A stretch of 64,000 nt of DNA from Mayamaea pseudoterrestris. Its lineage: Eukaryota. The first letter of the stretch is position 1; each line of letters begins with the position of its first letter. This document shows, one piece after another, positions 3,517 through 55,890 of this stretch. A program made the translations under genes and the position numbers. The notes below the pieces were generated by a model. That model was not told where the DNA came from. It worked only from the letters and a program-made list of their open reading frames with translations, and searched no databases. Location of the stretch: positions 310,001 to 374,000 of the forward strand of contig BROI01000004.1 in assembly GCA_027923505.1 (NCBI GenBank), in the 5' to 3' direction.

Positions 3517-5277
3517 TTACGCAGATCCATCCGCCTTGTTCATGTTCTCCGCAGCCTCGCGACGACGAGCATAAAACTCGTCCAAAGTCTTCTTGGGAAT
3601 CTTCTTGAGCAGCTCCTTGGGGAAGGCGCGCAAAATGCTCCACGCCAAGTCCAAAGACTCGAAAATACTGCGCGCCTCATATGGACCTTGGGCAACAAAC
3701 TTGCCTTCGAATCGCTCCAAAAAGCTCAAGTACAAGTGATCCTCCATCGACAAGGCTTCCTCTCCAACAACAGCCTTCATGGCAACCACATCCTTACCCA
3801 TGGCGTACGAAGCGTACAACTGATTCGAAACAGCGCCATGGTCAGATCGGGTCATACCTTCACCAATCGCCGACTTCATCAGACGCGACAAGGACGGAAG
3901 CACATTAATTGGCGGGAAGATTCCGCGCGTGTGCAACTGACGGTCCAAGTAGATCTGCCCTTCGGTAATGTAACCGGTCAAGTCAGGAATCGGGTGAGTA
4001 ATGTCGTCGTTTGGCATGGTCAAAATCGGCAACTGCGTAATGGAACCATTGCGGCCAACGACACGACCAGCTCGCTCGTAAATGGTCGAAAGATCCGTGT
4101 ACATGTAACCGGGGTAACCACGACGTCCAGGCACTTCCTCGCGCGCCGCTGAAACCTCACGAAGAGCGTCGGCATACGACGACATGTCCGTAAGAATGAC
4201 CAAGACGTGAAGGTCGCGCTCATAAGCCAAATACTCTGCCGTGGTGAGAGCAAGACGAGGCGTGATAATACGCTCAATCGTTGGGTCATTGGCCAAGTTG
4301 AGAAACAAGGCCGTACGTTCCATGGCGCCACTCTCCTCGAAATCAGAACGGAAGAAGCGGGCAGTCTCCATGTTGACTCCCATGGCTCCAAAAACAATGG
4401 CAAAGTTCTCCTCATGGCTATCTTGCGTGTCCTTAAGCTTGACCAAGGAGGCTTGGCGAGCAATCTGAGCCGCCACTTCATTGTGAGGAAGACCAGCGGC
4501 GGAGAAAATGGGAATCTTTTGTCCTCGCGCAATCGAATTCATGACATCAATGGCTGAAATACCAGTCTGGATCATGGCCTTGGGGTAATCACGCGACGAT
4601 GGGTTGATAGGCTGTCCGTTAATGTCCAAGTAAGCCTCGGGAAGAACCTTGGGAGCTTGATCAATAACCTTTCCTGATCCGTTAAAGGATCGTCCAAGCA
4701 TCTCCTCCGAGACTCCCATCTTGAGAACATCACCAGTAAACTCGCACTTGGTCTTGCGATTGTCGATACCGGCAGTTCCTTCAAAGACTTGCACAACGGC
4801 GCGGCTTCCCGCAACTTCAAGCACTTGACCTGATCGCGTGGTTCCATCTCCAAGAGTCAAATTGACAATCTCAGCGTACTTGGGGAGCTTGACATTATCC
4901 AAAATAACAAGAGGACCATTGACTCCGGCAATAGTACTGTAATGATAATTCGAAGGGTTTGAAATAGCATGTGTTAGATTGAATTTGAAATAGCGACAGC
5001 GTGGAAAATTAAACCCTCACGAGGAGCAAAAAGTTTGGAATCGATCAAGGAAGACTCAGCCAGCGACAAGGCCACTTAAGCAGCCCTTTCTTTCACGCAA
5101 TATTCCACAATGATTGCGCATATCGAATGAACAATTGATGCAGCATTGAGCGCACGGAATTAGAGAGAAAACTCACCGATACTCGAGGCGAGGAACCACC
5201 GCATAATCCTTCACAAGCGACCTTTGGTCCAAAACCTTTCGCTCCGGAATGAATCGTTCATCTTCATGTGCAGTCAT
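3517..5277 (-). CDS. VMA2: V-type H+-ATPase subunit B; exons 5277-5177 and 4936-3517
   Basis: Motifs [25 protein letters not shown] and [15 protein letters not shown] phase-2 GT..AG intron at 4937-5176 restores the conserved [16 protein letters not shown]. Confidence 0.97.
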
Positions 5278-12030: not shown

Positions 12031-13875
12031 ATGGCTCGAACAAAGTTCTTTTCAGTGGCAGCAGCAACAATGCTTTTCCTCTTGATGATGGAGCCATTTC
12101 AAACGTCGGCATTCTCGGCTATTTCCGGCACCAAAGATGCTAGTCGATCTCAAACTAAACCTCGCGTGATACCAATTACAATATTGTCAGGATTTTTGGG
12201 ATGCGGAAAAACGACTTTGCTTCAGCATTTACTACAGAATAACGAAGGCTCTCGCATTGCAGTGATTGTCAATGACGTTGCCAGCATGAACATTGACAGC
12301 AAACTCGTTTCCGCGCAGCAGCAACAAAATGGAGGAGCTGCAGGCATTGTTCAATTACAAAATGGCTGTGCCTGCTGCTCACTATCGGATGAGCTACTCG
12401 GCAGCGTTTCAGAACTAGTCACGCTCAGTGACTTGCGTATGCATGACGATGAAGACGCGGGCTTTGACCACATTGTCATTGAACTGTCAGGCTTGGCTGA
12501 CCCGCGCAGCGTTCGCGCCAAGTTTCAGGAAGCAGTCCTGTATGACATGCCACTCATGGAGCGGGTGCGACTGGATACCATGGTGTCTCTCGTCGACTGC
12601 AGCGTGTTTTTAAATCAACTGGCCAGCTCCAAAATGGCGTCGCCCGATGAGACGCCAGAGCTCTTCTATCGTGATGGAGTGAAACCGAATGAACCCGACT
12701 TTGACGACGATGATATGCCACCTGGACTTTTGGAGGCGCTCATGGCTGGCGAACAAGCGTACGGGTCTTCAGAAGGCACTGGGATGGAGCAGGATGCTGC
12801 CGTCGTTGAGCTGTTGGTCTCTCAGTGCGAAATCGCGGACGTTGTCTTGCTCAACAAGAAGGATTTGGCCACGACGCAGGTCATGGATCGGGTTGAAACA
12901 GTGGTGCGAGCGTTGAATCCGCGTGCGACTGTCATTTCAAGCGAGTACGGTCGACAACCACTGTCGCAGATTCTTGCCGTCGCCAAGGGACTAGGAGTAA
13001 CTCAAGCTGGATTGGTTGACGACCACAAGGACTTTGTGCAAGCCGCAGTAGCAAGCATCGCTGAGTCACATTCGCATGCCTCTGTACATTCTGTAGACGA
13101 AATAGAAAAGACTACCGCTGATCAGGCCAAGTCGCACGTCCACTCACACGAGCATGATGATGCGTGCCATGACCCACAATGCACAGACTCTAGTCATGTG
13201 CACGATCACTCTCACAGTGTAAATGCTCAATGCGACGATCCAGAATGTAATGATTCGAGTCACTCGCATTCGCATGACCACTTTGCGCACGGAAACATGG
13301 GAACTTTTGTATATCGCTCAAGGCGACCATTTCATCCGGACAGGCTTGTCAGTTTCTTACGACACCTATCGTTGACGCGTGGATTACCTGAGGCCCAGGG
13401 CTCATCAGCTGAAATTAATAAACATATACGGATACCAGACGACGGAAGGAGTCTGCTCAAAGGCATCTTACGGAGTAAGGGCTTCGTATGGTGTGCTGAT
13501 TCCGACGAGGCAGCCATGTTTTGGAGTCATGCCGGAACATCTTTCGAATTGAGCTGTTTAGGAAGATGGTGGGCCACGCTGGATCGTGCGCAGTGGCCTT
13601 CAGAAGCAGTTCAATCAATTCTGCAAGACTTCGACAGTGCCGAACACGATGAGAATGATTCGTCGTTCGTAACAGTCGGCGACCGACGACAAGAAGTTGT
13701 TTTTATCGGTCCAAACATGGGGAGCTCTATGAACCAGTGTTTACTGGCTGAGACCCTCGATCAGTGCTTACTACAGGACGACGAGTGGGCGCTATACTTT
13801 AAAAAGCGAAAGGATACACCAGCCTTGCGTGCCACATATGCGAATCCTTTTCAGGTCAGGATGGTGACCTATTAA
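12031..13875 (+). CDS. COG0523/CobW-family G3E GTPase metallochaperone, predicted plastid-targeted
   Basis: GFLGCGKT (G1), GCACC (CxCC), ELSG (G3), NKKD (G4), a His-rich linker and CobW_C motifs RRPFHP, RSKG and DRRQEVVFIG. Hydrophobic signal peptide ending TSA-F. Confidence 0.92.
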   Translation: MARTKFFSVAAATMLFLLMMEPFQTSAFSAISGTKDASRSQTKPRVIPITILSGFLGCGKTTLLQHLLQNNEGSRIAVIVNDVASMNIDSKLVSAQQQQNGGAAGIVQLQNGCACCSLSDELLGSVSELVTLSDLRMHDDEDAGFDHIVIELSGLADPRSVRAKFQEAVLYDMPLMERVRLDTMVSLVDCSVFLNQLASSKMASPDETPELFYRDGVKPNEPDFDDDDMPPGLLEALMAGEQAYGSSEGTGMEQDAAVVELLVSQCEIADVVLLNKKDLATTQVMDRVETVVRALNPRATVISSEYGRQPLSQILAVAKGLGVTQAGLVDDHKDFVQAAVASIAESHSHASVHSVDEIEKTTADQAKSHVHSHEHDDACHDPQCTDSSHVHDHSHSVNAQCDDPECNDSSHSHSHDHFAHGNMGTFVYRSRRPFHPDRLVSFLRHLSLTRGLPEAQGSSAEINKHIRIPDDGRSLLKGILRSKGFVWCADSDEAAMFWSHAGTSFELSCLGRWWATLDRAQWPSEAVQSILQDFDSAEHDENDSSFVTVGDRRQEVVFIGPNMGSSMNQCLLAETLDQCLLQDDEWALYFKKRKDTPALRATYANPFQVRMVTY

Positions 13876-13942: not shown

Positions 13943-15688
13943 CTACTTGAAGCAAAATGCCGCTGCTTCCTGTAGTTGTACAAGGCTTTCGTCTTCGTCC
14001 TCGTTCAAAATGGTAAACTCAAAAATACCACAGGAAATACCATATTCAATCTCCTGAACAATCTCGCGAGTTCTTGCACGCATCAAGCTTTCAGCAGTTT
14101 CGCCTTCGGGTATATCATCGTCCAACACCATCCTCTTTTTGAAGCTTTCCAAGTCTTTCAAGCCAACCCAGACTGAAACGAGACGAAGTCCTGATATCTT
14201 GACTAGTTGCTTGACCAATGGAACGTCCGCATCAATCACAACCACGGAATCGGGACCAGTCGCTCTCGCGGACTGTAAAATTCCTTCTTTGGTCGTGCCA
14301 TACCTTCCTGATGAATCAAGAATCAAAAACTCGTCACGCTGCAGTAACCTATCAAAATTGGCTGGATCTGCCACCTTGTCAACTGGCCTCGGCGCAACAA
14401 AGCGACCATTACCTTCTTGTATCAATCGCTGCACCAGCTTGGGCCGTCCCGTCGCCTGAGGACCAGATACCAAAAGCACAGTGGGTAGATCAGTCTCATC
14501 CGTGGCAAGATTCGCATTGGCGCTTGCTGCACCTTGCGACTCTCGAGCTTCTTTGACGAGCGAAAGAGCGATTCCAGCGCTTCCTGGCAGCAACGATTCA
14601 CCGTCACTAGTATCTCTTAGTGCGTCGCCAATTTGCGTGAGAAATAATGGAACGCGGTACGTCAAGAAGCCAAGGGTTGCGGCTCCAAACTGTTCCGGTG
14701 TGACAAACTCGAGCAGCCCATGACCATTGACGAGGCTCGCGTCGCCCAGGTTGGCATTGTACCAAGCAACGGCACCTACGACGACGAGCGGCAGCACGAA
14801 GCGAAAGCTTGCAATGTTCTTTCCAAGTCCAGCTTTATCGGATGCAATGGTATCCGTCTTGACTGACAGAAGAAACAAGTAACCCAAACTGGCGGCTGCA
14901 CCGGCTGCGTAAATGACGGCATCCTCAGTTCCCTTGACCAAATCTGCCACCAGTGTACCCGCCAAGCCGGCAAGAGCCGCATATCGGAACAGTTTGGATT
15001 TTAGCGCATCGTAAATGAGTGCGTCTTGCTCGACAACATCTTGATTAATGGCGTTAATGCCGGAGAACGGTCCCTCGTATCCTTCTATATCGTAGCGTTC
15101 CACTTTTGGTTTTGGTACTCCTGCCGGATCGCGAGGTATTTTAAAGGCGTTTTCGGCTCGCACGAAACTAGCAGTCACTGGACTAACGCTTGCCAAGTCG
15201 CGCGTCGTCTTTTTGGAAGCTCGCTGCCGGGCCGAGTAATCGGCGAAAAAGCCATCGCCCAAATCTTCCAGCTCGGCAATATCCAGCGTCCAGCCGCTGC
15301 CTTCGTTTCCAATGTTTCGTTGAATGAACGAAATCTTGCCAAGGAACCATTGTCCGTCCGTTTTTCCGCCATCCAAATCGTAGTATTTGACAATGTCGCC
15401 CGCCGTGGGGTAGAAACGTTTCAATTGCTTGGCAGCGAGCACAGGGTCTTCCTCGCCAGTTTGAGGAATGTAAGCTCCAAAGCCTTTAATTTCTTGCAAA
15501 TGAACGTTTTGAAAAGAATGGCGAGGAAAATATGCTGTATTTGATGACATGGTCGGCCTCAATTGCTGATTGCAGCGTATTCTGTGATTCACGACAAAGG
15601 CTTGACAGCTTTTTAAGCAACATGAGAGTAACAAAAGGGCTGAAATTTGTAGTATCGTTACTACATCTCGTATATATGTCATCCTCAT
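13943..15688 (-). CDS. Predicted plastid protein: AtpI/CGL160-like membrane domain plus C-terminal guanylate-kinase-like domain
   Basis: Signal peptide ending CQA-F. Central 4-TM region ending LGFLTYR, like the LGFLTYK of Atp1/CGL160. C-terminal LLVSGPQATGR, YGT, VVVIDADV and FEFTILNED resemble a guanylate kinase fold. Confidence 0.7.
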   Translation of the reverse strand: MRMTYIRDVVTILQISALLLLSCCLKSCQAFVVNHRIRCNQQLRPTMSSNTAYFPRHSFQNVHLQEIKGFGAYIPQTGEEDPVLAAKQLKRFYPTAGDIVKYYDLDGGKTDGQWFLGKISFIQRNIGNEGSGWTLDIAELEDLGDGFFADYSARQRASKKTTRDLASVSPVTASFVRAENAFKIPRDPAGVPKPKVERYDIEGYEGPFSGINAINQDVVEQDALIYDALKSKLFRYAALAGLAGTLVADLVKGTEDAVIYAAGAAASLGYLFLLSVKTDTIASDKAGLGKNIASFRFVLPLVVVGAVAWYNANLGDASLVNGHGLLEFVTPEQFGAATLGFLTYRVPLFLTQIGDALRDTSDGESLLPGSAGIALSLVKEARESQGAASANANLATDETDLPTVLLVSGPQATGRPKLVQRLIQEGNGRFVAPRPVDKVADPANFDRLLQRDEFLILDSSGRYGTTKEGILQSARATGPDSVVVIDADVPLVKQLVKISGLRLVSVWVGLKDLESFKKRMVLDDDIPEGETAESLMRARTREIVQEIEYGISCGIFEFTILNEDEDESLVQLQEAAAFCFK

Positions 15689-27618: not shown

Positions 27619-27829
27619 CGCTTGATGAAAAGGCGCAGCGGGTGTAAGGAAGGATGCAGCTCCTGAATAAATATTGAGCAGCACATAGTGTCAACTGATT
27701 ACCAGTATCTCATACAACTTTATAACTTAAAAACTATGCCTTTAATATAAAATGCCTGGTGCTCTTTGTCTTACGCACACCGACTGCAAACAAAGCTTTT
27801 TTGTTGTCACAAGTAAGGAAAACTGATGT

Positions 27830-28160
27830 CCATACTCAGAGCCATGTCCATAATTAAAAGATATCCAGATGGTGTCAACATACCTGGCTGGAACCTCATG
27901 ACAATGCAAGAAGATTGTAAAAGATTTGCTTCAAAACCCAGCTGGTGGGGGGGGGGGGCACAACTTGCTGAAGTCCATAATCAAAGCTGTGTCCATGACC
28001 AATAGACACCACAATGGTGGCAACATCCTTTTTCAGGCTGCTCTACAAAAAAACCTGGATGGTGACTCATGATGCTGCAATGCCATTGGTGAGAACTACT
28101 CACCAGTCCCAGCCAGTAGCTGCCATGACTTTTGACAGCCCATTCGTAGTGCCATGTCTA
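27830..28160. repeat. Degenerate ~150-bp repeat, left flank of the satellite array
   Basis: Shares GGCTGCTCTACAA (28036) and an exact 23-mer AACTACTCACCAGTCCCAGCCAG (28094-28116) with the right-flank repeats. Confidence 0.7.
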
Positions 28161-31100
28161 TGTCCAGCGGTGTACCCTGTTTGGTCAGTTGCACCCATTC
28201 CAATCTCCACCACCATGTATGTCATGGTGAGACTCAGCAGATCCAACAACTTGTGGGATCTGCTAGCAGCGCACCTCAAGTGACACTTCAGACTGCCAGA
28301 ATAACCTGCCAGTTATAAAATACAAAAAAAACATACATTCCTTAAGTGATTAATACACGAAGGCTTGTCACCTTGGGTGTGAAACCCATCCCTTTGCCAT
28401 GAGACTCCGCACATGTAACCAATCATTGATTGTGCCAGCCGTGCACCCTTTTTGGCTACACGAACCATCATTGTTGCCTGTTGAGCCCCCCAATCCATTT
28501 CAATTCATGTTGGGTGTCATGATGGGCCAATGCTTGGGTCAGTTGCACCCACCCATTCCAGTCTCCACCACCATGTATGTCATGGTGAGACTCGGCAGAT
28601 CCAATATTTTGTTGTATCTGTTAGCAGTGCACCTCAAGTGGCACTTCAGACTGCCAGAAGAACCTGCCAGTTCTGGAATACAAAGAACATACATTTTCTG
28701 AGTGATTAATACGCGAAAGCTTGTCGCCTTGGGTGTGAAACCCATCCCTTTGCCATGAGACTCCGCACATTCAACCAATCATTCAATGTGCGCCAGCCGT
28801 GCACCCTTTTTGGCTTCACGAACCATCATTGTTGCCAGTTGAGCCCTCCAATCCATTTTAATTCATGCTGAATGTCATGATGGGCCAATGCTTAAGTCAG
28901 TTGCACTGACCTGTTCCAGTCTCCATCACCATGTATGTCATGGTGAGACTCGGCAGATCCAACAACATGTTGTATCTGTTAGCAGCGCACCTCAAGTGGC
29001 ACTTTAGACTGCCAGAATAACCTGCCAGTTCTGGAATACAAAGAACATACATTTTTTAAGTGAATAGAGCGCAAAGGTTTGTCACCTTGGGTGTGAAACC
29101 CATCCCTTTGCCATGAGACTCCGCACATTCAACCAATCATTCAATGTGCGCCAGCCGTGCACCCTTTTTGGCTTCACGAACCATCATTGTTGCCAGTTGA
29201 GCCCTCCAATCCATTTTAATTCATGCTGAATGTCATGATGGGCCAATGCTTAAGTCAGTTGCACTGACCTGTTCCAGTCTCCATCATTATGTATGTCATG
29301 GTGAGACTCGGCAGATCCAACAACATGTTGTATCTGTTAGCAGCGCACCTCAAGTGGCACTTTAGACTGCCAGAATAACCTGCCAGTTCTGGAATACAAA
29401 GAACATACATTTTCTGAGTGATTAATACGCGAAGGCTTGTCACCTTGGGTGTGAAACCCATCCCTTTGCCATGAGACTCCACACATTCAACCAATCATTG
29501 AATGTGCCAGCCGTGCACCCTTTTTGGCTGCATGAACCATCATTATTGCCAGTTGGGCCCTCCAATCCAATTTAAGTCATGTTGGGTGTCATGATGGGCC
29601 ATTGCCTAGGTCAGTTGCACTGACCCATTCCAGTCTCCATCACCATGTATGTCATGGTGAGAACTTGGCAGGTCCAACAACTTGTTGGATCTGTTAGCAG
29701 CACACCTCAAGTGGCACACCAGACTTCCAGAATGGCCTGCCAATTCTGGAATACAAAGAAAATACATTTTTTAGTGATTAGAGCGCAAAGGCTTGTCACC
29801 TTGGGTGTGAAACCCATCCCTTTGCCATGAGACTCCGCACATTCAACCAATCATTGAATGTGCCAGCCGTGCACCCTTTTTGGCTGCACGAACCATCATT
29901 GTTGCCAGTTGAGCCCTCCAATCCATTTCAGTTCATGTTGGGTGTCATGATGGGCCAATGCTTAAGTCCGTTGCACTGACCCGTTCCAGTCTCCATCACC
30001 ATGTATATCATGGTGAGAACTTGGCAGATCCAACAACATGTTGGATCTGCTAGCAGTGCACCTCAAGTGGCACTTCAGACTGCCAGAATAACCTGCCAGT
30101 TCTGGAATACAAAGCAAATACATTTTCTAAGTGATTAGAGCACAAAGGCTTGTCACCTTGGGTGTGAAACCCATCCCTTTTAAATGAGACTCCGCACATT
30201 CAACCAATCATTGAATGTGCCAGCCGTGCACCCTTTTTGGCTACACAAACCACCATTGTTGACTGTTGAGCCCCCCAATCCATCTCAATTCATGTTTGAT
30301 GTCATGTTGGGCCATGCTTAAGTCAGTTGCAACCATCCATTCCAGTTTCCACCACCATGCATGTCATGGTGAGTCTTGGCAGATCCAACAATTTGTTGCA
30401 TCTGTTAGCAGCGCACCTCAAGTGGCATTCCAGACTGCCAGAATAACCTGCCAGTTCTGGAATACAAAGAACATACATTTTGCAAGTGATAAGAGCACAA
30501 AGGCTTGTCACCTTGGGTGTGAAACCCATCCCTTTGCCATGAGACTCCGCACATTCAACCAATCATTGAATGTGCCAGCCGTGCACCCTTTTTGGCTACA
30601 CGAACCATCATTGTTGCCACTTGAGCCCTCCAATCCATTTTAATTCATGTTGGGTGTCATGATGGGCCATTGCCTAGGTCAGTTGCACTGACCCATTCCA
30701 GTCTCCATCACCATGTATGTCATGGTGAGAACTTGGCAGGTCCAACAACTTGTTGGATCTGTTAGCAGTGCCCCTCAAGTGGCACTTCAGACTGCCAGAA
30801 TAACCTGCCTGTTCTGGTATACAAGAATCATTTGTTTTTCAAGTGAATAGAGTGCAAAGGCTTGTCATCTTGGGTGTGAAATCCATCTATTTGCCATAGA
30901 CTCCGCACATTCAACAAATGGTTGAATGTGCCAGCCGTGCACCCTTTTTGGCTACACGAACCATCATTGTTGCCACTTGAGCCCTCCAATCCATTTTAAT
31001 TCATGTTGGGTGTCATGATGGGCCAATACTTGGGTCAGTTGCACCCACCCGTTCCAGTCTCCACCACCATGTATGTCATGGTGAGAACTTAGAAGTTCCA

Positions 31101-37100: not shown

Positions 37101-40100
37101 TGTTGGATCAGCTAGCACTGCACCTCAAGTGGCACTTTAGACTGCCAGAATGGCCTGCCAGTTCTGCAATACAGAGAACATAGATTTTTTAAGCGATTAG
37201 ACCGCAAGGGCTTGTCATCTTGGGTGTGAAACCCATCCATTTGCCATGAGACTCTGCACATTCAACCAATCATTGAATGTGCCAGCCGTGCACCCTTTTT
37301 GGCTACATGACCATCATTGTTGCCAGTTGAGCCCTCCAATCCATTTTAATTCATGTTGGGTGTCATGATGGGCCAATGTTTACATCAGTTGCACTAACCC
37401 GTTCCAGTCTCCATCACCATGTATGTCATGGTGAGAACTTGGCAGGTCCAACAACTTGTTGGATCTGTTAGCAGTGCCCCTCAAGTGGCACTTTAGACTG
37501 CCAGAATGGCCTGCCAGTTCTGGAATACAGCGAACATACATTTTTAAGTGATTAGAGCGCAAAGGCTTGTCACCTTGGGTGTGAAACCCATCCCTTTGCC
37601 ATGAGACTCCGCACATTCAACCAATCATTGAATGTGCCAGCCGTGCACCCTTTTTGGCTGCACGAACCATCATTGTTGCCAGTTGAGCCCTCCAATCCAT
37701 TTTAATTCATGTTGGGTGTCAGGATGGGCCAATACTAGTCAGTTGCACCTGCCAGTTCTGACATGTATGTCATGGTGAGACTCGGAAAATGGGATCGTTG
37801 CACCTCAGTGGCACTTTAGACAGCCAGAATGGCCTGCCAATTCTGGAATACCAGGAAAATACATTTCTTAACTGATTAGAGCGCAAAGGCTTGTCACCTT
37901 GGGTGTGAAACCCATCCATTTGCCATGAGACTCCGCACATTCAACCAATCATTGAATGTGCCAGCCGTGCACCCTTTTTGGCTACATGACCATCATTGTT
38001 GCCAGTTGAGCCCTCCAATCCATTTTAATTCATGTTGGGTGTCATGATGGGCCAATGCTTAAGTCCGTTGCACTGACCCGTTCCAGTCTCCATCACCATG
38101 TATGTCATGGTGAGAACTTGGCAGATCCAACAACATGTTGGATCTGCTAGCAGTTACCTCAAGTGGCACTGCAGACTACCAGAATAACATGCCAGTTCTG
38201 GAATACAAAGAACATACATTTTTTAAGTGATTAGAACGCAAAGGTTTGTCACCTTGGGTGTGAACCCATCCCTTTGCCATGAGACTCCGCACATTCAACC
38301 AATCATTGAATGTGCCAGCCGTGCACCCTTTTTGGCTACACGAACCATCATTGTTGCCTGTTGAGCCCCCCAATCCATTTCCATTCATGTTGGGTGTCAT
38401 GATGGGCCAATACTTGGGTCAGTTGCACCCACCCGTTCCAGTCTTTACCACCATGTATATCATGGTGAGACTCGGAGGCTCCAACAACTTGTTGGATCTG
38501 CTAGCAGCACACCTCAAGTGGCACTTCAGACTTCCAGAATAACCTGCCAGTTCTGGAATACAAAGCAAATACATTTTCTAAGTGATTAGAGCGCAAAGGC
38601 TTGTCACCTTGGGTGTGAAACCCATCCCTTTGCCATGAGACTCCGCACATTCAACCAATCATTGAATGTGCCAGCCGTGCACCCTTTTTGGCTACACGAA
38701 CCATTCAAGTGGCACTTCAGACTTCCAGAATAACCTGCCAGTTCTGGAATACAAAGCAAATACATTTTCTAAGTGATTAGAGCGCAAAGGCTTGTCACCT
38801 TGGGTGTGAAACCCATCCCTTTGCCATGAGACTCCGCACATTCAACCAATCATTGAATGTGCCAGCCGTGCACCCTTTTTGGCTACGTGAACATCATTGT
38901 TGCCAGCTGAGCCCTCCAATTCTTTCCATTTCATGTTTGATGTCATGATGGGCCAATGCTTAAATCTGTTGCACTGACCCATTCCAGTCTCCATCACCAT
39001 GTATGTCATGGTGAGAACTTGGCAGATCCAACAACTTGTTCAGCGCACCTCAAGTGGCACACCAGACTTCCCGAATGGCCTGCCAATTCTGGAATACAAA
39101 GAAAATACATTTTTCAAGTGATTAAAGCGCAAAGGCTTGTCACCTTGGGTATGAAACCCATCCCTTTGCCATGAGACTCCGCACATTCAACCAATAACTG
39201 AATGTGCCAGCCGTGCACCCATTTTGGCTACATGAACCATCATTGTTGCCACTTGAGCCCTCCAATCCATTTTATTTCATGTTGGGTGTCATGATGGGCC
39301 ATTGCCTAGGTCAGTTGCACTGACCCATTCCAGTCTCCATCACCATGTATGTCATGGTGAGAACTTGGCAGATCCAAGAACATGTTGGATCTGCTAGCAG
39401 CGCACCTCAAGTGGCACTTCAGACTGCCAGAATAACCTGCCTGTTCTGGTATACAAGAATCATTTGTTTTTCAAGTGAATAGAGTGCAAAGGCTTGTCAT
39501 CTTGGGTGTGAAATCCATCTATTTGCCATAGACTCCGCACATTCAACAAATGGTTGAATGTGCCAGCCGTGCACCCTTTTTGGCTACACGAACCATCATA
39601 TTTGCCTGTTGAGCCCTCCAATTCTTTCCATTTCATGTTTGATGTCATGATGGGCCAATGCTTAAGTCAGTTGCAGCCACCCATTCCAGTCTCCACCACC
39701 ATGTATGTCATGGTGAGAACTTAGAAGTTCCAACATCATGTTGGATCAGCTAGCACTGCACCTCAAGTGGCACTTTAGACTGCCAGAATGGCCTGCCAGT
39801 TCTGGAATACAGAGAACATACATTTTTAAGCAATTATACCGCAAGGGCTTGTCACCTTGGGTGTGAAACCCATCCATTTGCCATGAGACTCCGCACATTC
39901 AACCAATCATTGAATGTGCCAGCCGTGCACCCTTTTTGGCTACATGACCATCATTGTTGCCAGTTGAGCCCTCCAATCCATTTTAATTCATGTTGGGTGT
40001 CATGATGGGCCAATGTTTACATCAGTTGCACTAACCCGTTCCAGTCTCCATCACCATGTATGTCATGGTGAGAACTTGGCAAATCCAACAACTTGTTCAG

Positions 40101-43100
40101 CGCACCTCAAGTGGCACACCAGACTTCCAGAATGGCCTGCCAATTCTGGAAAACAAAAAAAATACATTTTTTAAGTGATTAAAGCGCAAAGGCTTGTCAC
40201 CTTGGGTGTGAAACCCATCCCTTTGCCATGAGACTCCGCACATTCAACCAATCATTGAATGTGCCAGCCGTGCACCCTTTTTGGCTACACGAACCATCAT
40301 TGTTGCCTGTTAAACCCCCCCAATCCATTTTAATTCATGTTCGGTGTCATGATGGGCCAATACTGGGGTCAGTTGCACCCACCCGTTCCAGTCTCTACCA
40401 CCATGTATGTCATGGAGAGACTCAGCAGATCCAACAACATGTTGGATCTGCTAGCAGTGCACCTCAAGTGGCAATCTAGACTGCCAGAATGGCCTGCCAA
40501 TTCTGGATTACAAAGAAAATACCTTTTTTAACTGATTAGAGCGCAAAGGCTTGTCACCTTGGGTGTGAAACCCATCCCTTTGCCATGAGATTCCGTACAT
40601 TCAACCAATCATTGAATGTGCCAGCCGTGCACCCTTTTTGGCTGCATGAACCATCATTATTGCCAGTTGGGCCCTCCAATCCAATTTAATTCATGTTGGG
40701 TGTCATGATGGGCCAATACTTAGGTCAGTTGCACCCACCCGTTCCAGTCTTTACCACCATGTATGTCATGGTGAGACTCAGCAGATCCAACAACTTGCTG
40801 GATCTGCTAGCAGCGCACCTCAAGTGGCAATCTATACTAACAAAATGGCCTGCCAATTCTGGAATTCAAAAAATCATTTTTTAAGTGATTAATAGGCAAT
40901 GGTTTGTCACCATGGGCATGAAACCCATCCCTTTGCCAAGAGACTCCGCACATTCAACCAATCATTGGATGTGCCAGTTGGCACCCTTTTTGGCTACACA
41001 AACCATCATTGTTGCCTGTTGAGCCCCCCAATCCATTTCCATTCATGTTGGGTGTCATGATGGGCCAATATTTAGGTCAGTTGCACCCACCCGTTCCAGT
41101 CTTTACCACCATGTATATCATGGTGAGACTTGGCAGATCCAACAACTTGTTGGATCTGTAGCAGCGCACCTCAAATGGCAATCTAGACTGCCAAATTGGC
41201 CTGCCATTTCTGGAATACAAAGAACATACATTTTCTAAGTGATTAGAGCGCAAAGGCTTGTCACCATGGGTGTGAAATCCATCTATATACCATGAGACTC
41301 CACACATTCAACCAATCATTGAATGTGCCAGCCGTGCACCCTTTTTGGCTACACAAACCATCATTGTTGCCTGTTGTGCCCCCCCAAACCATTTCAATTC
41401 ATGTTGGGTGTCATGATGGGCCAATACTTGGGTCAGTTGCACCCACCCGTTCCAGTCTTTACCACCATGTATATCATGGTGAGACTCGGAGGCTCCAACA
41501 ACTTGTTGGATCTGCTAGCAGCACACCTCAAGTGGCACTTCAGACTTCCAGAATAACCTGCCAGTTCTGGAATACAAAGCAAATACATTTTCTAAGTGAT
41601 TAGAGCGCAAAGGCTTGTCACCTTGGGTGTGAAACCCATCCCTTTGCCATGAGACTCCGCACATTCCACCAATCATTGAATGTGCCAGTTGTGCACCCTT
41701 TTTGGCTGCACGAACCATCATTGTTGCCAGTTGAGCCCTCCGATCCATTTCAGTTCATGTTGGGTGTCATGATGGGCCAATGTTTAGGTCAGTTGCTCCC
41801 ACCCGTTCCAGTCTTTACCACCATGTATATCATGGTGAGACTTGGCAGATCCAACAACTTGTTGGATCTGTAGCAGCGCACCTCAAGTGGCAATCTAGAC
41901 TGCCAGAATGGCCTGCCATTTCTGGAATACAAAGAACATACATTTTCTAAGTGATTAGAGCGCAAAGGCTTGTCACCATGGGTGTGAAATCCATCTATAT
42001 ACCATGAGACTCCACACATTCAACCAATCATTGAATGTGCCAGCCGTGCACCCTTTTTGGCTACACAACCATCATTGTTGCCTGTTGAGCCCCCCAATCC
42101 ATTTCCATTCATGTTGGGTGTCATGATGGGCCAATACTTGGGTCAGTTGCACCCACCCGTTCCAGTCTTTACCACCATGTATATCATGGTGAGACTCGGA
42201 GGCTCCAACAACTTGTTGGGTCTGCTAGCAGCACACCTCAAGTGGAACTTCAGACTTCCAGAATAACCTGCCAGTTCTGGAATACAAAGCAAATACATTT
42301 TCTAAGTGATTAGAGCGCAAAGGCTTGTCACCTTGGGTGTGAAACCCATCCCTTTGCCATGAGACTCCGCACATTCCACCAATCATTGAATGTGCCAGCT
42401 GTGCACCCTTTTTGGCTGCCGTTTCTTTTTTATCCTTTTCCTCTCATCTTATCTCATGCTCCTTGTTGATCTCACACTTCAGACTGCAAGAATAACCTGC
42501 CTGTGTTCTGTATACAAGAATCATTTGTTTTTTTTTAGTGAATAAAAGTGCAAAGCTTGTCATCTTGAGTTGTGAAATCCATCTATTTGCCATAGACTCC
42601 GCTGTTCAACAAATGGTTGAATGTGTACTGCAACACCTTTTTGGCTACTCGAATGTTGTTTGCCTGTTGAGCCCTCCAATTCTTTCCATTTCATGTTTGG
42701 TGTTATGATGGGCCAATACTTAGGCCCCTGTCTCTCAAAGTAATCGGAAGAGATCAACAATTTTGGGATCTGCTACTGCACCGAATGGCACTAGACTGCC
42801 AGAATACCTGCCAGACTACAATCATTCATTTTTCGTGTTGAGCGCGTTTGTCACCTTGGGTGTGGAACCATCCCTTTGCCATGAGACTCCGCACATTCAA
42901 CCTTTGAATGTGCCACATCCCTTTTTGGCTACCACACGCCCTGCTGAGCCCAACTTTCCATTTCATGTTTGGTGTCATGATGGGCCAATGCTTTGGTCAG
43001 TTGCGCCACCCATTCGTCTCACACATTTCTTGAAACTCAAATCCAACATTTGTTGGATCTGCTACAGGCACCTCAATCTGACTCATGCCTAAATACTTTG

Positions 43101-46100
43101 TTTCCAATTTGGCTTGTCACCTTGGTGTGGAACCCATCCCTTGGCCACGAGACTCCACATTCAACCTTTGAGCACACCCTTTTTGGCTACAGGGACCATC
43201 AGCGTCCTTTGACCGAACCTTATGTTTGGTGTCATGATGGGCCCTTTCAGTTGCACCCTCGTCTCCACCACATCAGACCTTGCAGATCAACAACTTGTTG
43301 GATCTGTTACAATGCCCCTCAAGTGGCACTTCAGACTGCCAGAATGGCCTCCTTTCTACAACATTGTGTTTCAGTGATTAGGACTCAACTTGTCACCTTG
43401 TGTGAAACCCTCTTTGGCCATAACTCCCACATTCAACAAATGTTGAATGTGCCACCTGCACACCCCTTTCTACAGCTGCCCTGAGCCCCGAATCCTTTTC
43501 AATTCATGTTGGGTGTCATGATGGGCCATATGTGGTCAGTTGCACCCCATTCCAGTCTCCACCACCATGTATGTCATGGTGAGACTCAGAAGATCCAACA
43601 ACTTGTTGGATCTGCTAGCAGTGCACCTCAAGTGGCAGCTTCAGACTGCCAGAATAACATGCCAGTTCTGGAATACAAAGAACATACATTTTTAAGTGAT
43701 TAGAGCGCAAAGGTTTGTCACTTGGGTGTGAAACCCATCCCTTTGCCATGAGACTCCGCACATTCCACCAATCATTGAATGTGCCAGCTGTGCACCCTTT
43801 TTGGCTCAACAAACCATCACTGCCTTTGAGCCCCCATCCATTTCCATTCATGTTGGGTGTCATGATGGGCCAATACTTGGGTCAGTTGCACCCACCCGTT
43901 CCAGTCTTTCACACCATGTATATCATGGTGAGACTCAGAATCAACAACTTGTTGGATCTGCTGCAGTACACCTCAATGCACTTCAGACTGCCAGAATCCT
44001 GCCTTCTGGAATACAATGCATTGTGTTCAAGATTTGGCGCAACTTGTCACCTTGGGTGTGGAACCCACCCTTGGCCATGAGACTCCAACTTGTCGGATTT
44101 TCTGACCCTCTGACCATCCATTTTTTGGTGTCATGATGGGCAATGTTGTCAGTTGCGCACCATTCCGTCTCCACCACCTGTATGCATGTGAGCTCACTTG
44201 TGCAAACTTGTTGGCATGGCACTTCACTGCCAATCCTCCATACAGAACATTGTGTTTCAATTGATTTGGACGCAAGGCTTGTCACCTTCGGTGTGGAACC
44301 CATCCCTTTGCCATGAGACTCCGCACATTCAACCAATGGTTGAATGTGCCACCGTACACCCTTTTTGGCTGACAAGGACCGTCACTGTGCCTTCTGAGCC
44401 CTCCAATCCATTTTCCAATTCATGTTTGGTGTCATGATGGGCCAATGCTTTAGTCCGTTGCACTGACCCGTTCAGTCTCCATCACCATGTATGTCATGGT
44501 GAGAACTTGCTTGCAGATCCAACAACATGTTGGATCTGCTAGCAGTAACCTCAAGTGGCACTTCAGACTACCAGAATAACCTGCCAGGATACAAAGAATC
44601 AATGATTAGACTCAAAGGCTTGTCACCTTGGGTGTGAACCCATCCCTTTGCCATGAGACTCCGCACATTCAACCAATGGATGTGCCAGCGCCCCGGCGGT
44701 CGGCTCCTCTGGCCCGACCTTCTCTGTTTGGTTCATGATGGGCCAATTTGGTCAGTTCGTCACCCATTCGTCTCCACACCGTGTATGCCATGGTGAGACT
44801 CAGCTGCAGATCCAACAACTTGTTGGATCTGCTAGCAGTCACCTCAAGTGGCACTTCAGACTGCCAGAATGGCCTGCCATTAAGGACTACAATTGAGCAT
44901 TGTGTTTCCAGATTTGGACTGACTTGTCACCTTGGGTGTGGAACCCATCCCTTGGCCATGAGCTCCGCACATTCAACCAATGTTGAATGTGCCAGCAGTG
45001 CACCCTTTTTGGCTACAGGGACCATCAGCGCTGCCTTCTGAGCCCTGAAATCCTTTCAAGTCATGTTTGGTGTCATGATGGGCCAATGATTTAGTCAGTT
45101 GCGCCCATTCCAGTCTCTACCACCATGTATGCCATGGTGAGACTCAGCTTGCAGATCCGACAACTTGATGGATCTGCTAGCAGTGCACCTCAAGTGGCAC
45201 TTCAGACTGCCAGAATGGCCTGCCAATAAAGGAATACAATGAGCATTGTGTTTCCATTTGATTTGGACTCAAAGGCTTGTCACCTTGGGTGTGGAATCCA
45301 TCCCTCTGCCATGAGAACCCGCACATTCAACCAATGGTTCAATGTGCCAGCAGTGCACCCTTTTTGGCTACAGGGATCATCAGCGCAGCCTTCTGAGCCC
45401 TGAAACCCTTTTCATTTATTTTTGGTGTTATGATGGGCCAATGATTTGGTCCGTTGCACCCCATTCCAGTCTCCATCACCATGTATGCCATGGTGAGATC
45501 GGCTTGCAGATCCAACAACTTGTTGGATCTGCTGGCAGTACACCTCAAGTGGCACTTCAGACTGCCAGAATGGCCTGCCACAATACAAAAAGCATTTTGT
45601 GTTTCAATCTGATTGGACTCAAGGCTTGTCACCTTGGGTGGGAACCCATCCCTTGCCATGAGGACTCCGCACATTCAACCAATGGTTCAATGTGCCAGCA
45701 GTGCACCCTTTTTGGCTACAGGGATCATCAGCGCAGCCTTCTGAGCCCTGAAACCCTTTTAATTCATGTTTGGTGTCATGATGGGCCAATGATTTGGTCA
45801 GTTGCGCCCATTCCAGTCTCCACCACCATGTATGCCATGGTGAGACTCAGCTTGCAGATCCAACAACTTGTTGGATCTGCTAGCAGTGCACCTCAAGTGG
45901 CACTTCAGACTGCCAGAATGGCCTGCCAGTACAGGAATACAATGAGCATTATGTTTCAATCTGATTTGGACTCAAAGGCTTGTCACCTTGGGTGTCGAAC
46001 CCAACCCTTTGCCATGAGACTCCGCACATTCAACCAATGGTTGAATGTGCCAGCGGTGCACACTTTTGGCTACAGGGATCATCAGCGCTGCCTTCTGAGC

Positions 46101-55500: not shown

Positions 55501-55559
55501 CAATTTAATATGCAAAAATGGAATGAAGACACCAGAATATATGAGGATGGTGTTAAATG

Positions 55560-55890
55560 CTTATTAAGGCTGCCCTACAAATGGAATGCCTGGCTGGTGC
55601 CATATGATGCTGTGCCATAGGTGATAACATCTCATCGGTCCCAGCCAGCAGCATCCATGACTTTCAACGGCCCATTCTCAGAGTCGTGTCCATTACTAAT
55701 AGACACCAGGATGTCCTTATCCCGGCTGCCCTACAAGATTAAAAGCCTTGCTATTGCCTCATGATGCATTTTCATTGGTTTTTAACTACTCACCAGTCCC
55801 AGCCAGCAGCAGCCTTGACTTTCAACAGCCCAATCTCATAGCCCATGTCCATGAACAAACAACCTAATTCAGGCTGCTCTACAAGATTAA
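55560..55890. repeat. Degenerate ~150-bp tandem repeat (2+ copies), right flank of the satellite array
   Basis: GGCTGC(C/T)CTACAA at 55568, 55724 and 55872 (periods 156 and 148). GTCCCAGCCAGCAGCA..TGACTTTCAAC.GCCCA occurs twice. Confidence 0.8.

Follow-up and report, generated by a model that had tools for sequence, protein, structure and literature searches.

We analysed a 64,000-nucleotide stretch of the Mayamaea pseudoterrestris contig BROI01000004.1 (assembly GCA_027923505.1, positions 310,001 to 374,000 of the forward strand; hereafter the window, with positions counted from its first letter), which holds a satellite array whose monomer carries two short palindromes, dyad A and dyad B, the subject of this report. 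The array occupies 28180-55526 on the plus strand (27.3 kb) and consists of about 77 head-to-tail monomers with a repeat period of 356/357 bp (Tandem Repeats Finder, TRF). A profile made from 54 clean monomers gave 82 nhmmer matches, all on the plus strand, that tile this interval free of gaps, and 74 of them are near full length; with this constant period and shared strand, the non-coding monomers line up head to tail over a long distance, as expected of satellite DNA. The monomer in which we describe both dyads (29818-30174, plus strand, 357 bp) spans profile columns 1-357 at 441 bits. Pairwise identity among monomers averages 0.875 and drops smoothly with distance (lag 1, 0.891; lag 15, 0.872), with no higher-order period in the array; the variants found among its copies are therefore not merely copies of a few higher-order units.

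Both palindromes stand exactly where a first-pass annotation of this DNA had placed them. Dyad A (29837-29863) reads GCACATTCAA-CCAATCA-TTGAATGTGC, which pairs as 10-7-10 (arm, centre and arm, in nucleotides) in this copy and would pair as 13-1-13 if 29852-29853 were GG. Dyad B (30024-30050) reads GCAGATCCAA-CAACATG-TTGGATCTGC, which pairs as 12-3-12 here and as a perfect 13-1-13 in the array consensus (GCAGATCCAACAA-C-TTGTTGGATCTGC, with CAACTTG at its centre). The exact 10-N7-10 pattern occurs 48 times for A and 21 times for B across the window. Two variants of the left flank, GAGACTCG and GAGAACTTG, are both present. The predicted regular spacing, about one dyad per nucleosome length, also held: the median centre-to-centre distances are 187 bp from A to B and 170 bp from B to A, and the same two values are the modes (27 and 31 cases, respectively). 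Enumeration of dyads in the consensus monomer returned four with arms of at least 6 nt, namely A, an 8-5-8 dyad at 29996-30016 (TCACCATG-N5-CATGGTGA) just upstream of the block around B that we call box B below, B itself and a 6-11-6 dyad at 30083-30105 (CCAGAA-N11-TTCTGG). Their summed arm length of 37 compares with 9.3 ± 8.2 in dinucleotide shuffles of the consensus and was reached by 3 of 500, and arms of at least 10 nt appeared in 4 of 500. Both palindromes are real and far beyond chance.

The dyads are also predicted to fold stably. As single-stranded DNA, the hairpin of dyad A reaches -9.2 kcal/mol (z -3.2; -12.6 kcal/mol for a perfect variant at 44323) and that of dyad B -13.2 kcal/mol (z -4.4), while B and the upstream 8-5-8 dyad fold together at -21.1 kcal/mol (z -6.4); none of 200 shuffles folded as stably as the box hairpins. 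With dyads in excess of shuffles and stable predicted hairpins, the array qualifies as a dyad-symmetry, or non-B-DNA, satellite.

The first-pass annotation had taken the monomer for a hidden dimer with halves of about 178 bp, and in this it went too far. The halves are alike only in a block of about 48 bp (48-52 bp with its margins), composed of a left flank, the dyad and a right flank, which we call box A (29824-29875, plus strand) and box B (30011-30062, plus strand) and which local alignment and profile matches identify as paralogous. The likeness runs through TGAG(A)ACT.., the palindrome, and then.AGC.GTGCACC. It is significant against shuffled controls (local score 31, z 5.9; 1000 dinucleotide shuffles gave 16.7 ± 2.4, the highest scoring 30), and box A matched box B profile against profile with E values of 8e-10 and 5e-8. 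The same cannot be said of the rest of the halves: the remaining 135 and 118 bp are not similar, their global score being reached by 110 of 1000 shuffles and their best E values in profile comparison being 0.47 and 0.97. Three words that had been listed as shared by the halves outside the boxes are at chance level, since TGCCAGTT is the best local match there and its score was reached by 400 of 1000 shuffles, and the other two yielded no alignment beyond it. With the halves otherwise unrelated, the dimeric nature of the monomer is not demonstrable, and what the monomer contains is two paralogous boxes; behind them could conceivably lie an old dimer that has decayed everywhere else. Near 44068-44121, an apparent monomer passes from the left flank of box A into the right arm of box B, and a contig of one public sequencing run (X1, see below) joins 29845 to 30039 in a joint that resembles it.

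Box A and box B differ in sequence and agree in symmetry. The perfect forms of the two dyads are distinguished by arm positions 4, 7 and 12, where every change in one arm has its counterpart in the other; between the local copies, the four arm differences fall into two exactly compensated pairs (C:G to G:C, T:A to C:G), just as the first-pass annotation had it. Since all of the arm differences are mirrored, the property that the dyads share is twofold symmetry and not sequence, and it is symmetry that has been retained between them; arm identity (10/13) is no higher than that of the right flank (10/12). Under independent substitution in the arms, full mirroring would be expected in 1 of 405 cases for two pairs in 10-nt arms and in 1 of 7722 for three pairs in 13-nt arms. 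We counted pairs over 148 boxes (89 distinct rows), and among the distinct rows found GC 39 and CG 37 at pair 4, CG 36 and UA 35 at pair 7, and AU 48 and CG 7 at pair 12. Overall, 88.8% of cells pair, vs. 81.7% with partners shuffled (0 of 500 shuffles reached the observed value) and at most 34% with partners slid. Two-sided change was found at five pairs, a number reached by 218 of 500 shuffles, and these are essentially 2-3 A-versus-B events and one event within the array. The latter is a compensated series at pair 13 of B, at which 37 of the 74 copies have AT, 30 have AA and 4 have TA.

To the first-pass annotation, the 7-nt spacer was a kept feature, and here the evidence points the other way. 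Alignment of one monomer length (29780-30130) with contigs of four public sequencing runs (X1, X2, X6 and X7), all of them assembled, such that depth gives no copy number, strand or expression, showed that 29852 C>G and 29853 A>G at the centre of dyad A account for 87% and 96% of the depth in X1 (94% and 99.8% in X2), and 30038 A>T at the centre of dyad B for 97% (98% in X2). The majority contig letters thus render both dyads perfect 13-1-13 palindromes; in the common variant 29848 C>A (37% of X1 depth), pair 12 of A is lost. In the array itself, 52 of 74 copies have CA at the centre of A and 14 have GG, with one copy showing a single intermediate. Dyad A is 13-1-13 when its centre reads CCAATGG, as it does in 2 of 69 indel-free window copies, with 10 more pairing at 12 of 13 positions; the corresponding numbers for B are 5 perfect copies of 66 and 21 that pair at 12 of 13. 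Taken together, the majority contig letters, the array consensus of B and the few A copies that are 13-1-13 identify 10-7-10 as a derived state that is locally dominant in this array, and B departs from it already in the copy that had been annotated. The local majority centre of A, AACCAATCA (29847-29853 and equivalents), holds a CCAAT word and a shifted 4-1-4 palindrome, CAAT-C-ATTG.

Older copies lead to the same conclusion about the spacer. At 42420-44303 (plus strand) lies a run of shortened and diverged monomers of about 265-340 bp, scored by nhmmer at 40-295 bits vs. about 400 elsewhere, in some of which the arms of A are retained around centres that have shrunk (10-3-10 near 42890, 11-2-11 near 43428), other copies being broken. 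With arms staying around centres of 3 or 2 nt, spacer length is not the feature that is kept. This stretch opens with a 55-bp T-rich piece of non-satellite DNA (42420-42474). Elsewhere in the array, at 38514-38886, a 191-bp segment stands in two copies of 100% identity and joins profile column 79 to column 246, a doubling that records a recent local duplication or deletion event within the array.

We compared the dyads with the rest of the monomer in the variability of array columns, which averages 0.101 over all columns and 0.106 over those outside the dyads. Variation is far lower in the arms of A (0.028) than outside the dyads, in the arms of B it is at about the level found elsewhere (0.095), and the 10-nt arms are unbroken in 49 of 74 copies of A and 21 of 74 copies of B. 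The first-pass annotation had counted arm-breaking changes no rarer than in other positions as a refutation; by that measure it is refuted for B in this array and not for A. Among the public contigs, those matching the monomer number 1622 of 555,133 in run X1 and 692 of 182,933 in run X2, again with depths that are not copy numbers. Contig depth in X1, which partly reflects how well short variant contigs align, is 415,000-737,000 at box A and 318,000-665,000 in the right-hand part of box B, vs. 39,000-146,000 between the boxes (bins 29900-30019), so that the boxes have 5-15 times the contig depth of the rest of the monomer. The depth profile of X2 has the same shape as that of X1, a peak at 30032-30079 recurs in X1, X2 and X7, and X7 peaks at both boxes while X6 peaks at box A only. 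The 29 X1 variants of at least 10% that were listed (of 49) all lie outside the 40 outer arm positions, for which length alone predicts about 3.3. These depths suggest that the boxes are the best-kept parts of the monomer genome-wide. Runs X6 and X7 contain the repeat at low depth and with variant shares close to those of X1 (29848 C>A at 36% vs. 37%), and consequently provide no independent cross-species evidence.

The array differs from its surroundings in composition and is bracketed by a different repeat. Its G+C content is 46-47%, and its plus strand is C-rich. The observed/expected ratio of CpG is 0.26 in the array, vs. 1.06 and 1.01 on its two sides, and that of TpG/CpA in the array is 1.71; the depletion of CpG probably reflects long-term cytosine methylation. 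No known RNA family of the Rfam type matched anywhere in the window. Immediately to the left (27823-28170, plus strand) are about 2.3 copies of a repeat of about 145-171 bp, and immediately to the right (55530-55890, plus strand) about 2.3 copies of a unit of about 157 bp in the same orientation. The two are about 80% alike over about 190 bp (local alignment score 124), and a 19-mer core of the repeat occurs only at 28098, 55630 and 55788. It looks as if the 356-bp array had expanded inside an older short repeat. Kinship of the flank repeat with the satellite itself was considered and rejected as not significant (the alignment score was reached by 6 of 500 shuffles for the left copy and 248 of 500 for the right, and nhmmer found nothing at E values up to 10). 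Within the left repeat, just upstream of the array, there is a run of about 11 G (27945-27960).

Farther out, the flanks are densely packed with open reading frames (ORFs) for housekeeping proteins, among them aconitase, histidinol dehydrogenase, the V-ATPase B subunit, a CobW-like GTPase and GLE1 with a CCCH finger, as well as a DA1-like protein, Pex19 and a Kelch protein; the genome around the array is that of a compact, intron-poor eukaryote. The V-ATPase B frame (3517-5016, minus strand) is 499 aa from stop to stop, and its first ATG would give 400 aa with the N-terminal domain lost; possibly the gene contains a small intron or starts farther upstream. Two predicted plastid-related proteins, the CobW-like GTPase (12031-13875, plus strand) and a weak CGL160-like protein (13943-15688, minus strand), each begin with a predicted signal peptide followed by Ala-Phe (...TSAF/SA and ...CQAF/VV). 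A signal peptide followed by Ala-Phe is typical of targeting to complex plastids, and the predicted starts of both proteins are compatible with such targeting. In a protein-cluster atlas, the cluster nearest to the GLE1-CCCH protein is most frequent in Bacillariophyta (score 0.96), a lead that, taken with these two protein starts, points to a probably diatom-like host.

How the boxes have remained symmetric can be read in several ways. Tentatively, we favour a reading in which self-templated correction, probably aided by weak selection for hairpin or cruciform DNA, has kept these conserved palindromic boxes of the CpG-depleted satellite symmetric. When one arm changes, intra-palindrome template switching or hairpin-templated repair would copy the change to the other, and a compensated pair could thereby arise in one step; the CA/GG change at the centre of A, with its two letters linked, fits a templated multi-base change of this kind, and template switching is known to generate perfect stems and to keep them so (PMC8794818, PMC8604942, PMC5453318). 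In addition, array turnover would favour monomer variants whose boxes are intact, since the boxes work as symmetric DNA. Their likeliest action would be the extrusion of a hairpin or cruciform (stems of 12, 3-nt loops) about once per nucleosome-length unit, in a setting of heterochromatic, possibly centromeric, chromatin. Several observations weigh against this reading. The conservation of A is common to its non-palindromic neighbours (0.025 in the left flank, 0.016 in columns 59-68 and 0.023 in columns 128-141), and because they are equally conserved it is not specific to symmetry. The arms of B vary at the background rate (0.095 vs. 0.106) and are broken in 53 of 74 copies. Apart from pair 13 of B, all arm variants within the array break a pair, and only 2-3 compensated events separate the two classes, the high pair counts being those of inherited copies and not of independent changes; the claim that compensatory changes conserve the dyads has these 2-3 events behind it and not a long series of independent compensations. 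Nor are the dyads deletion hotspots (8 and 11 distinct deletions vs. a mean of 12.1 per 27-column window), and with no excess of deletions there is no sign of hairpin-driven instability. Finally, some of the depth over the boxes is owed to alignability, and X1 is possibly the source of the window itself. Much the same evidence can be explained by a neutral by-product, which we consider doubtful, though worth serious weight: functionless palindromes would have arisen or been re-made by inverted duplication or by template switching, which the first-pass annotation had named as its neutral alternative, and then been spread by satellite amplification, and the mirrored differences between A and B, in that equally doubtful view, would be the automatic result of arm-to-arm copying. 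The scarcity of compensated events, the decay of the B arms with so many copies broken, and the lack of arm specificity in the conservation of A all suit such a by-product, as does the linked change at the centre of A, which resembles a templated multi-base mutation; the mechanism has been described from other genomes (PMC8794818, PMC5453318, PMC8604942). Unbiased copying between arms would, however, leave the substitution rate unlowered, yet the boxes far exceed the rest of the monomer in depth; the listed X1 variants avoid the outer arms, the monomer as a whole, with its four dyads, is enriched in dyad symmetry, and degenerate monomers retain the arms of A despite deletions in their centres.

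Two further explanations invoke a protein. A dimeric, sequence-specific protein might read a half-site common to the two boxes, GCAnATnCAAC, at intervals of one nucleosome-length unit, as a functional analogue of a CENP-B box or of a domesticated transposase site. That A and B have the same letter at 10 of 13 arm positions, that the non-palindromic flanks of the boxes are conserved too, as for a larger footprint, that the spacing of 187/170 bp is regular, and that the boxes appear as the most conserved parts genome-wide would all be in keeping with it. We nevertheless regard it as unlikely: positions 4, 7 and 12, if not contacted by the protein, need not stay paired, yet they do, and if they are contacted then A and B would require different proteins; moreover, a search of the 36.6-kb flanks for isolated half-sites or copies resembling terminal inverted repeats (TIRs), with at most two mismatches, returned only four matches, which have two mismatches and are at chance level. 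Because the diverged positions stayed paired, the dimeric protein fits less well than does symmetric DNA. The boxes could instead derive from a recombinase or transposon, either as a core of the tyrosine-recombinase type with a 6-8-bp spacer or as abutted TIRs of a mobile element that seeded the satellite. Core sites of tyrosine recombinases consist of arms around a spacer of 6-8 bp, and both the 13-nt inverted arms and the 10-7-10 form that is the local majority for A resemble them, while the monomer near 44068-44121 and the similar X1 contig joint (29845-30039) suggest exchange between the boxes. Exchange of this sort is, however, expected between 48-bp paralogous boxes from ordinary unequal recombination. 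In contrast to such cores, the centre is 1 nt long in the genome-majority and array-consensus forms and changes length in degenerate copies (2-3 nt in the old ones); 18 scanned flank ORFs contained no recombinase or transposase domain, and no solo half-sites lie outside the array. We judge this origin very improbable, and the recombinase-like core with a 7-bp spacer that the first-pass annotation had offered is not supported, because the ancestral, majority form has a 1-nt centre.

On present evidence, the array is a satellite whose conserved islands are perfect palindromes, present in two paralogous copies that have diverged in sequence and not in symmetry, and it offers a natural test case of selection on non-B DNA vs. 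self-templated palindrome correction. If the neutral by-product is the truth, this is ordinary satellite DNA. A stronger proposal, to which we attach a low probability, is that the array is a satellite centromere or centromere-proximal heterochromatin of a diatom-like alga in which paralogous palindromes, extruding as cruciforms or bound by a dimer, would phase two nucleosomes per 356-bp unit, their symmetry having been selected through at least three compensated changes. Were the host a diatom and the repeat a mark of centromeres or major heterochromatin, it would provide defined boxes for episome and artificial-chromosome work.

We found no description of this repeat in the literature on diatom satellites and centromeric repeats, a search that would miss a consensus given only in a supplement. 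The 13-mers of box A and of its flank had no match in the papers searched, and the 13-mer of box B (2 papers) and an 11-mer (15 papers) matched only primers or sequences that are unrelated by title. When metagenomes were scanned with the non-palindromic box A flanks, 17 loci came up, all unrelated chance matches, none of them matched by the monomer profile. The array is ordinary-looking, well-structured satellite DNA, and its palindromic-box type is not unusual.

Among known systems, template-switch hairpins (PMC8794818, PMC8604942, PMC5453318) share with the dyads mirrored arm changes, a linked two-base change at the centre and the coexistence of perfect and near-perfect forms. The cases treated there are single-copy loci or RNA genes placed on phylogenies, whereas the changes in the satellite are not polarised by an outgroup, and the spacer inversion described for such hairpins is not seen among the spacer variants of our dyads. 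CENP-B boxes are asymmetric. The boxes described here are palindromic, and outside the 48 bp that they cover the halves of the monomer are non-homologous, unlike those of alpha-satellite dimers. What is shared with alpha-satellite dimers, which carry one CENP-B box per dimer (PMC4410388), is a unit of about 340-360 bp with two nucleosome-length parts and short boxes in fixed phase, many of them degraded, and the likeness to alpha satellite and CENP-B is one of functional analogy only.

Described diatom centromeres (10.1101/096016, 10.1101/2021.11.10.468027) are probably from the same broad host group as the window and, as described in the later study, are short, low in G+C and devoid of highly repeated elements, in contrast to an array of 27 kb and 46-47% G+C made of tandem repeats. 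That study looked for clusters of 100-bp bins with at most 32% G+C and no repeats; no such cluster exists in the window, which has at most one bin of this kind per 3 kb and a lowest G+C of 0.396 over 500 bp. If the host is a diatom and its centromeres or major heterochromatin are marked by the repeat, this would widen the view of diatom chromosome architecture beyond the short, low-G+C and non-repetitive centromeres reported in that study. Satellites rich in dyad symmetry and prone to non-B DNA have been proposed to mark centromeres (Kasinathan and Henikoff 2018, PMC5889037), and the monomer resembles those of that survey both in its enrichment in short dyads with predicted hairpins or cruciforms and in carrying no recognisable sequence-specific box of a known family. 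It departs from the dyads surveyed there, which are below 10 bp, in that its main dyads have long arms of 13 nt, are perfect and occur in two paralogous copies per monomer. Of the kinds described so far, these dyad-rich satellites come closest to the array, whose placement at a centromere is hypothetical.

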